Source: an uncultured bacterium
Lineage (GTDB): Bacteria; Patescibacteriota; Minisyncoccia; Phycocordibacterales; PALSA-1337
DNA length: 64,000 nt
Direction: 5' to 3'
NCBI GenBank assembly: GCA_903839725.1
Contig: CAIMDG010000001.1
Coordinates: 107,559-171,558 of the forward strand
A program made the translations under genes and the position numbers. Shown here one piece after another: positions 26,407-26,528 of this stretch (the stretch's first letter is position 1; each line of letters starts with the position of its first letter). The notes beneath the pieces were generated by a model. It was not told where the DNA came from and made no database searches. It worked only from the letters and a program-made list of their open reading frames with translations.

Positions 26407-26528
26407 CGCCTCCTCAGGGGGTGCTGTACTCATTTTCTGTACAAGTTTGTAAACATTGAGGTAAGCGGTGTAATGTACATGTCTCTAAACTTGTACAGAA
26501 AATGAGTACAGCACCCCCTGAGGTGGCT
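26407..26528. repeat. Palindromic intergenic repeat, family copy B
   Basis: cctcagggggtgctgtactcattttctgtacaagttt...aaacttgtacagaaaatgagtacagcaccccctgagg; compensatory gcgc->gtac change in both arms relative to A/C. Confidence 0.85.

Follow-up and report, generated by a model that had tools for sequence, protein, structure and literature searches.

Copy B of a palindromic intergenic element of roughly 120 bp, at positions 26408 to 26527 of the 64,000-nucleotide stretch of DNA analyzed here (hereafter, the window), carries base changes that are mirrored between its two arms, and across seven copies of the same family, the pairing of such arm differences lies far beyond chance. These mirrored changes are more likely to stem from copying at the DNA level than from selection on an RNA structure. 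The explanation that fits best, and that we consider probable, is arm-to-arm copying by template switching in a REPIN/MITE-like intergenic repeat. This preference over RNA covariation draws on the near absence of G·U pairs, changes that span several bases, extension of arms into flanking DNA, inverted centers, remnants at degraded sites, and the placement of the elements relative to promoters. The element is probably a dispersed palindromic intergenic repeat, the upkeep of whose arms is explained by a known mutational mechanism.

Genomic context of the palindromic element

The window is a stretch of bacterial housekeeping chromosome (valS, cysS, corA, dnaB, recR, ribosomal protein genes, rpoA, dnaK/dnaJ/grpE, and murG/ftsW). 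Its nearest genomes are Patescibacteria MAGs labeled Taylorbacteria, Paceibacterota, or Parcubacteria, and the host chromosome is Paceibacteria/Taylorbacteria-like, within the candidate phyla radiation. A phage origin was rejected, given this housekeeping content and the absence of a match in a phage collection; a tRNA or tmRNA was likewise rejected, as none was found. Among the Pfam matches for the open reading frames of the window, there was no transposase, HUH, RAYT, or recombinase gene.

Three copies of the element, A, B, and C, occupy intergenic gaps. Copy A lies between a cold-shock gene, which has its own terminator, and valS; copy B separates dnaB from a divergent 98-aa ORF; and copy C lies between divergent corA and S41-peptidase genes. 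Motif reading placed a −10-like box (TATAAT) 7 nt ahead of the corA ATG (29213–29226) and another (TGTTAGAAT) 6 nt ahead of the dnaB ATG (26286–26300), both conserved in relatives, and such short spacing suggests leaderless mRNAs. The −10 boxes of the S41 gene and the 98-aa ORF, as well as the cold-shock terminator and the valS −10 box, all read in the same manner, fall outside the elements. Given these positions, all three copies appear to sit upstream of the neighboring promoters, in probably untranscribed spacers. A simple promoter scan did not call the corA, dnaB, S41, 98-aa ORF, and valS promoters that were read from motifs, and no consistent promoter or U-tract flanks the copies. An invertible promoter switch was rejected since the lone promoter-like match inside an element (TTTACA-16-GAGAAT, copy C) is not kept in A, B, or the metagenomic copy L001 described below (L followed by a number denotes a related locus or contig). 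A replication origin at site B was also rejected, there being a single DnaA-box-like motif and no turn of the cumulative GC skew at 26 kb.

Several further observations concern the surroundings of the elements. A DnaA-box-like motif at 26352–26360 (minus strand, TTATTCACA), 67–75 nt upstream of the dnaB start, is followed by the C-run TTTTCCCC; the combination of TTAT(T/C/A)CAC and TTTTCCCC is conserved in L090, L010, L013, L014, L011, and L095, and palindromic elements insert just past it. Between the cold-shock terminator and copy A, a non-coding block at about 6330–6460 is strongly conserved, within an alignment of 6240–6740 to L096 that is 85% identical overall. On the minus strand, this block displays a promoter-like site (6491>6463, 10/12) and a terminator-like hairpin (6352–6335), along with long-range pairing potential (GTGTCAGG ... 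CCTGACAC) and no Rfam match; judged from these features, it may be a small RNA gene. Elsewhere in the window, two adjacent paralogous HisKA_7TM histidine-kinase genes (15714–18888) are the source of the direct repeats D1 and D3 (71–76% identical), and a third gene (12249–13175) holds the 7TM region only. Two adjacent large ORFs of 458 and 402 aa without a Pfam match (54708–57326) adjoin the palindrome at 54588–54693. An RmuC-family gene occupies 19411–20508, and its neighboring gap holds a family 1 copy in L090 and a deletion in the window. In E. coli, RmuC is implicated in limiting inversions at short inverted repeats.

Copies and anatomy of family 1

Copies A (6509–6622), B (26408–26527), and C (29272–29397), given here without strand, have arms of 38–44 bp that are 92–100% complementary around a 38-nt asymmetric center. 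The 38-bp arms of A and the 44-bp arms of C are perfect, and relative to the centers of B and C, that of A is reverse-complemented. In B, the left arm (26408–26448), the center (26449–26486), and the right arm (26487–26527) form a hairpin with a single T/T mismatch near its base, while in C, the outer 13–17 bp of the arms have their counterpart in a simple hairpin that L095 carries at this site. Each copy folds into 38–44 perfect or near-perfect base pairs at about −80 to −94 kcal/mol (z = −11.8 to −16.6), with equal folding energy on either strand, and each is nested in a weaker, imperfect outer palindrome. Pattern searches allowing up to three mismatches returned these three as the sole copies in the window, where zero would be expected by chance. 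They are spread over 23 kb at unrelated loci.

Four additional copies were recovered elsewhere. A metagenome scan yielded copy L001, adjoining rpmF, with a center as in the window copies and different arms. Protein look-ups led to a sister species (CysS 86% and ValRS 91% identical) with three copies: one orthologous to site B (L090 11736–11854), one orthologous to site A (L096 9831–9951), and one at a site, termed L090b, that is empty in the window (L090 19409–19527). The seven-copy set used below comprises the three window copies, L001, and the three from the sister species. Across this set, arms of 38–47 bp, perfect or nearly so, enclose an asymmetric center of 27–38 nt, and conservation declines outward from the center and inner arm (TCATTTTC ... 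AAGTTT). Between the invariant stretches TCATTTTC and AAGTTT sits a hypervariable 5-bp box that reads TGCGC, TGTAC, TACAC, TGCAG, TTTGA, or CGTAA, depending on the copy, and that includes the changed position of B. The outer 10–20 bp of the arms differ in all seven copies. The type of center is uniform within a genome, with three centers of type 1a in the window and three of type 1b in the L090/L096 species.

Searches for further members were largely negative. Exact-pattern scanning of GTDB genomes gave no copies, and the same scan of metagenomes gave only one true copy (L001) and one chance match in a coding region (L002). Viral contigs scanned for the family 1 and family 2 cores gave none. 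An nhmmer search with a four-copy profile against 80 dnaB-syntenic loci of related genomes gave no additional family 1a copies, and family 1 is therefore lineage-restricted. Separately, window positions 6650–6669 (CTTATTTTCTGCTAAAGTGT), which lie 28 nt past copy A, immediately ahead of valS, match the family 1 inner arm at 17 of 20 positions and are also kept in the sister species (L096). Either a relic of a solo arm or a native, arm-related sequence could explain this stretch.

Mirrored substitutions in copy B

The sequence-only reading had described the inner arms of B as doubly changed on both sides with complementarity kept, and the sequence bears this out. In the left-arm variable box (26437–26448, CTGTACAAGTTT), positions 26440–26441 read TA where A and C read CG, and in the mirror box of the right arm (26487–26498, AAACTTGTACAG), positions 26494–26495 read TA where A and C again read CG. 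The corresponding boxes are CTGCGCAAGTTT at 6535 and AAACTTGCGCAG at 6585 in copy A, and CTGCGCAAGTTT at 29304 and AAACTTGCGCAG at 29354 in copy C. In each arm of B, TGCGCA has become TGTACA; since both hexamers are self-complementary, the event amounts to four substitutions that keep the symmetry between the arms as well as within each arm. The earlier statement that the loop differs at several positions also holds, as the 38-nt center of B departs from those of A and C at 26451 (G>A), at 26456 (C>A), and in a 3-nt patch at 26478–26480.

The sequence of B is identical in two independent ENA assemblies (L003 and L004), and an assembly artefact is thus excluded. A short, low-coverage contig (L009 1744–1874) holds copy B with three unmirrored differences, one at a loop end and two in the right arm, which reflect either errors of assembly or genuine variation in single arms within the population. 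Several other contigs break within element B; assemblers tend to break at palindromes.

A conserved 19-mer (TTTTCATCGAATCTTCATT), previously said to follow copy B directly, in fact occupies 26582–26600 and starts 55 nt past the end of the element. It is part of a 54-nt direct repeat (26562–26615 and 48324–48377, 78% identical) and contains a small inverted repeat of its own (ATCGAAT-CTTC-ATTCGAT). The sole other copy of the 19-mer, at 48344–48362, has no palindrome nearby. Given the 55-nt gap, the internal inverted repeat, and the palindrome-free second copy, the 19-mer is an independent motif and not part of the palindromic element. The first copy of the 54-nt repeat lies just upstream of the 98-aa ORF and the second lies 38 nt upstream of a 124-aa ORF that is followed by dnaK and dnaJ; a homologue of the 98-aa ORF adjoins grpE in L092. 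From this placement, the repeat may serve a chaperone regulon as a shared operator or promoter. Related loci contain no copy with up to three mismatches.

Statistics of arm pairing

In the seven-copy alignment, on which all family 1 statistics rest, 27 of the 41 arm pairs show change on both sides (63 cells) and none shows variation on one side only. Pairing holds in 98.9% of cells, and none of 500 shuffles reached any of the measures; sliding the partner by one to three columns lowered pairing to 36–52%. A six-copy alignment gave the same picture. The 27 two-sided changes, the lack of one-sided changes, and the shuffling result exclude the outcome that the sequence-only reading had named as refuting, arm differences random with respect to pairing; in the larger set, these differences are strongly non-random.

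The nature of the changes was then considered by pair type. Only 2 of 282 cells in the seven-copy family 1 alignment are G·U, and transversions and multi-base blocks account for many of the pair changes. In 29 elements of many families (see below), which together have 1003 arm pairs, the mismatches comprise 10 G·T, 10 A·C, and 17 others, and elements with at least two transition-type mismatches are mostly mixed-strand.

Evolution of the elements in place

Arm differences are always mirrored, both from copy to copy and between orthologous copies of sister species. At site A, the window and L096 differ at four of the five box positions and by a TG>CA change, and the arms are perfect in both. At the rpmA (L27) site, the family 2 copies of L010 and L090 share 53 of 53 center positions, with arms only 65% and flanks 70–92% identical, and each copy is 100% self-complementary despite this divergence of the arms. 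Upstream of dnaB, the centers of L015 and L017 agree at 37 of 38 positions (97%) only after one is inverted; their inner arms are 82% identical, with mirrored changes, and dnaB itself is 83% identical. Site B departs from this pattern, as the arms of the window and L090 are about 85% identical and the centers are barely alignable. The center is thus better conserved than the arms in two of three orthologous comparisons and less conserved at site B, and such differing divergence indicates that arms and centers have partly separate histories.

Arms change by blockwise correction and extension, and centers invert. In L021, one copy reads TTGA/TCAA and two sister copies retain a 4-nt bubble (TTGA/GAGG). 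The left arm of the L015 element repeats CTCATTCT in inverted form; L017 has this sequence as unique flank beside dnaB. The centers at sites A and B have opposite orientations in the window and the same orientation in the L090/L096 species, and types 1a and 1b match over their central 26 nt only if these are inverted relative to the loop ends (p ~0.001).

Occupancy of the sites is variable. Site C in L090 retains one outer arm and part of the element arm (CAGGGGCAGCATTCTCTTTTT), and less remains in L010; in the outgroup L095, the same site is a plain hairpin with 18-bp arms (8281–8325) that are positionally homologous to the outer arms of C. The L090b site holds a remnant in L010 and a larger deletion, without a hairpin, in the window. 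Site B is empty in L013, L014, and L095 and carries a family 2 element in L010, and the site downstream of M23 carries different families in the window and in L095. Judged from these alignments, the elements seem to decay by deletion, leaving half-deleted remnants. Three copies at unrelated loci, genome-specific center types, variable presence, and remnants together amount to repeat-like behavior. No direct repeats that would mark a target-site duplication are visible at the boundaries of the 29 elements with listed flanks, and no clean recent insertion was caught in the compared loci; mobility is accordingly suggested by the distribution of copies only. The idea that outer arms are, as a general rule, inverted target duplications made at insertion was rejected because orthologous arms evolve in place and L090 keeps element-specific arm sequence at the degraded site C, the exception being L015, where arm extension into the flank does occur.

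Other palindrome families in the window and in related genomes

A palindrome scan of ~1.4 Mb of related loci returned 29 strong elements belonging to many families and sharing one design, in which long, near-perfect, quickly diverging, and largely copy-specific arms enclose an asymmetric center that defines the family. The window itself holds four long palindromes beyond family 1, starting at 2695, 32111, 34196, and 54588 and, like the family 1 copies, listed without strand. The family 2 member (32111–32229) has 32-bp perfect arms, or 36 bp in the mismatch-tolerant extension of the finder, and its core folds as two small hairpins atop the long stem, that is, a three-way junction. Orthologous copies are present in L010 and L090. 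The two mini-hairpins have conserved loops, GACTG and AGCA, on stems that covary, as in GCCT/AGGC versus GGGC/GCCC; the core also displays apparent tandem G·A mismatches. Family 2 is widespread, with occurrences at L010 4691–4813 and 9780–9902 and at L090 6096–6214, and also in L049, L021, L043, and L013. The remaining window palindromes apparently belong to other families: 34196–34322 has 32-bp arms and a 63-nt center whose end (ATCCCGCTGGGAAT) recurs in L013 4498–4619, 54588–54693 has 28-bp arms and a 50-nt center, and 2695–2788, with arms of ~30 bp and a 30-nt center, lies exactly between HlyD-like and ABC-transporter genes.

Elements of the related genomes occupy divergent, tandem, and convergent gaps. 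Leaving aside the site upstream of dnaB, which is in every sampled locus by design, the gene contexts are 5 divergent, 9 tandem, and 5 convergent, with no bias. About 10 of 80 related genomes have a long palindrome, of at least four families, 65–145 nt upstream of dnaB, an occupancy of ~12% compared with ~9% for any gap of at least 150 nt. An enrichment upstream of dnaB or between divergent genes was therefore rejected, as no such excess is left when the sampling design is taken into account.

Comparison with known systems

The elements behave most like REPINs, with the design inverted. REPINs commonly carry compensatory changes on both sides of the hairpin, and their singlets are remnants of full elements (PMC3116915). 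The elements described here are likewise short, non-coding, multi-copy, and intergenic, form long single-strand hairpins with compensatory changes, and show long vertical persistence, and REPIN singlets have their parallel in the half-elements left at site C of L010 and L090. In REPINs, however, the REP ends are conserved and recognized and the center is variable, whereas here the center and inner arms are conserved and the ends vary most; conserved inverted REP ends around a less conserved spacer are thus lacking. No RAYT was seen among the ORFs of the 64-kb window, the copy number looks low, and the host belongs to the Patescibacteria, whereas the hosts of REPINs are Proteobacteria.

MITEs such as the Neisseria Correia and ERIC/IRU elements are intergenic repeats of ~100–150 bp with an inverted-repeat architecture and variable presence, found beside promoters, and are defined by family-conserved terminal inverted repeats and direct target-site duplications. 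Repeat size, inverted repeats, variable presence between relatives, and promoter proximity are shared with the present elements. Unlike MITEs, these elements have outer 10–20 bp that vary in all seven family 1 copies, show no target-site duplication among the 29 elements with listed flanks, and possess much longer, essentially perfect arms.

The arms also resemble the products of a mutational process, template-switch mutagenesis at inverted repeats. Under the Ripley model, quasipalindrome correction homogenizes arms, introduces multi-nucleotide changes, turns short, imperfect into longer, perfect inverted repeats, and inverts spacers (PMC8604942), and all four outcomes are present in these elements. 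Being a process and not an element family, it explains the matched arms but not the conservation of centers or the spread of copies.

Integron attC sites, IS200/IS605 ends, and the T-shaped terminal repeats of parvoviruses are single-strand hairpin substrates recognized by their structure and a few bases, and they keep pairing with free stem sequence and conserved unpaired bases. The family 2 core, a long stem capped by two small hairpins, resembles them, which we note as a lead only; no integrase, HUH enzyme, or Rep gene is nearby, and the elements are solitary and chromosomal. The stems of attC, a type of site with conserved R''/L''-L'/R' boxes beside an integrase and cassette array, are short and imperfect with extrahelical bases, whereas those here are perfect and without bulges. 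The perfect stems, the lack of an integrase in the window, and the housekeeping neighbors speak against integron attC sites. Intrinsic terminators, which are short GC-rich stems with a T-run behind them at gene 3' ends, do not fit either, as a T-run is found in C only and B and C lie between divergent gene starts. Rfam gave no match in the window at the gathering threshold, and E-value scans around the copies gave only sub-threshold matches to generic miRNA hairpins and precursors on the elements, such as are expected for any long hairpin; a known RNA family was accordingly rejected, nothing usable having emerged at either threshold.

Mechanism and alternative explanations

Template switching between inverted repeats has documented products, namely, arm homogenization, arm extension, and spacer inversion (PMC8604942; PMC8794818), and the presence of all three here fits a DNA-level process. 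Hairpins can arise and be kept up by such switching, whose outcome can look like compensatory substitution (PMC8794818). In the proposed mechanism, a hairpin formed during replication would allow intra- or inter-strand template switching, with one arm serving as the template for the other ("quasipalindrome correction"). A change in a single arm would then either revert or be fixed simultaneously on both arms, and the same switching could lengthen the arms into flanking DNA and invert the center. The CG>TA change of copy B would accordingly represent a one-arm mutation copied to the other arm rather than two selected compensatory RNA changes. The element itself would be a REPIN/MITE-type intergenic repeat that amplifies within genomes, persists for long periods at its sites, and decays by deletion. 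Template switching is read here from its end products, and the same end state could result from strong selection that favors a perfect helix of DNA or RNA. DNA-level copying also gives no account of the strong conservation of some centers or of the covarying mini-hairpins of family 2, so that rival explanations keep real weight. As read from the alignments, these two features suggest a sequence-specific reader of the folded strand, possibly as RNA, which a purely selfish, decaying repeat would not require.

A structured RNA gene or cis-element, in which a long hairpin presents a sequence-specific apical loop and the paired changes reflect compensatory evolution under selection for RNA pairing, is an unlikely source of these patterns, even though the covariation statistics are very strong, the RNA folding energies are extreme, the apical sequence is better conserved than the stems in several comparisons, and family 2 presents a three-way junction with covarying small hairpins and conserved GACTG and AGCA loops. 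Such a reading was implied when R-scape was proposed for copy B on the sequence alone; the near-absent G·U pairs, the multi-base and transversion changes, the inverted centers, and the probably untranscribed location do not favor it. G·T and A·C mismatches are equally frequent, perfect helices of 38–47 bp are atypical of functional bacterial RNAs, and there is no strand bias. The center occurs in both orientations among paralogues and inverted at orthologous sites, so that a transcript driven from outside the element would carry the complement of the conserved loop. The copies also lack a consistent flanking promoter or U-tract as well as an Rfam match, and the apparent position of A, B, and C upstream of neighboring promoters adds to this. 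Similarly unlikely is a DNA cruciform or hairpin recruited by the host and bound by a host protein. DNA-level copying would still keep its arms perfect, but the element would owe its persistence to its usefulness, perhaps as an insulator or supercoil sink between promoters placed back to back, or as a binding site for a replication or nucleoid protein. A function independent of orientation would fit the flipped centers, and B, C, and the family 2 copy at 32111 do lie between divergent genes. The recurrence of palindromes of at least four families upstream of dnaB and the conservation of centers in place beyond that of neighboring coding DNA point the same way. Yet occupancy is sporadic: most relatives lack any palindrome upstream of dnaB, and occupancy there (~12%) is near that of any gap of at least 150 nt (~9%). 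The gene contexts apart from the dnaB site are mixed, and close relatives that retain the genes and putative promoters of sites B and C have these sites empty or degraded.

Two further possibilities concern what is mobile and what is recognized. The mobile unit might consist of the conserved core and inner arms only, inserting at the tips of existing hairpins or palindromes, with outer arms derived from the locus; we hold this to be quite improbable. It would account for the L095 hairpin (8281–8325) that is positionally homologous to the outer arms of C, for the weaker, imperfect outer palindrome around each copy, and for the exchange of families at single sites, both at site B (occupied by family 1 in the window and in L090, by family 2 in L010) and downstream of M23. 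The L095 hairpin could, however, equally be the remainder of an older element after deletion of its center, the empty L090b site of the window has no hairpin, no insertion event was caught in the compared loci, and no enzyme is known. It is also conceivable, though rather unlikely, that these elements form a new class of Paceibacteria hairpin elements read at the apex, in which an unknown protein would recognize a conserved apical module in folded single-stranded DNA or RNA. The module would be a simple asymmetric loop in family 1 and, in family 2, a three-way junction with covarying mini-hairpins and GACTG/AGCA loops; the long stems would drift freely, with replication keeping their self-complementarity, and the tips of existing hairpins may be where new copies are seeded. 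If true, this class would turn the REPIN design around, and it would offer a natural case of long helices being visibly maintained by template switching.

Implications

Such findings call for caution in covariation-based RNA discovery, as highly significant "compensatory" statistics can come from DNA palindromes that are probably untranscribed. Absent G·U pairs, multi-base changes, and flipped loops are tell-tale signs of a DNA origin. No prior description of these palindrome families was found in Rfam or by full-text literature search. The small, streamlined genomes of the candidate phyla radiation hold several families of long palindromic repeats, in several cases with conservation of the center between species. 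Should these elements have a protein partner, they would provide a new handle on DNA transactions in unculturable organisms.
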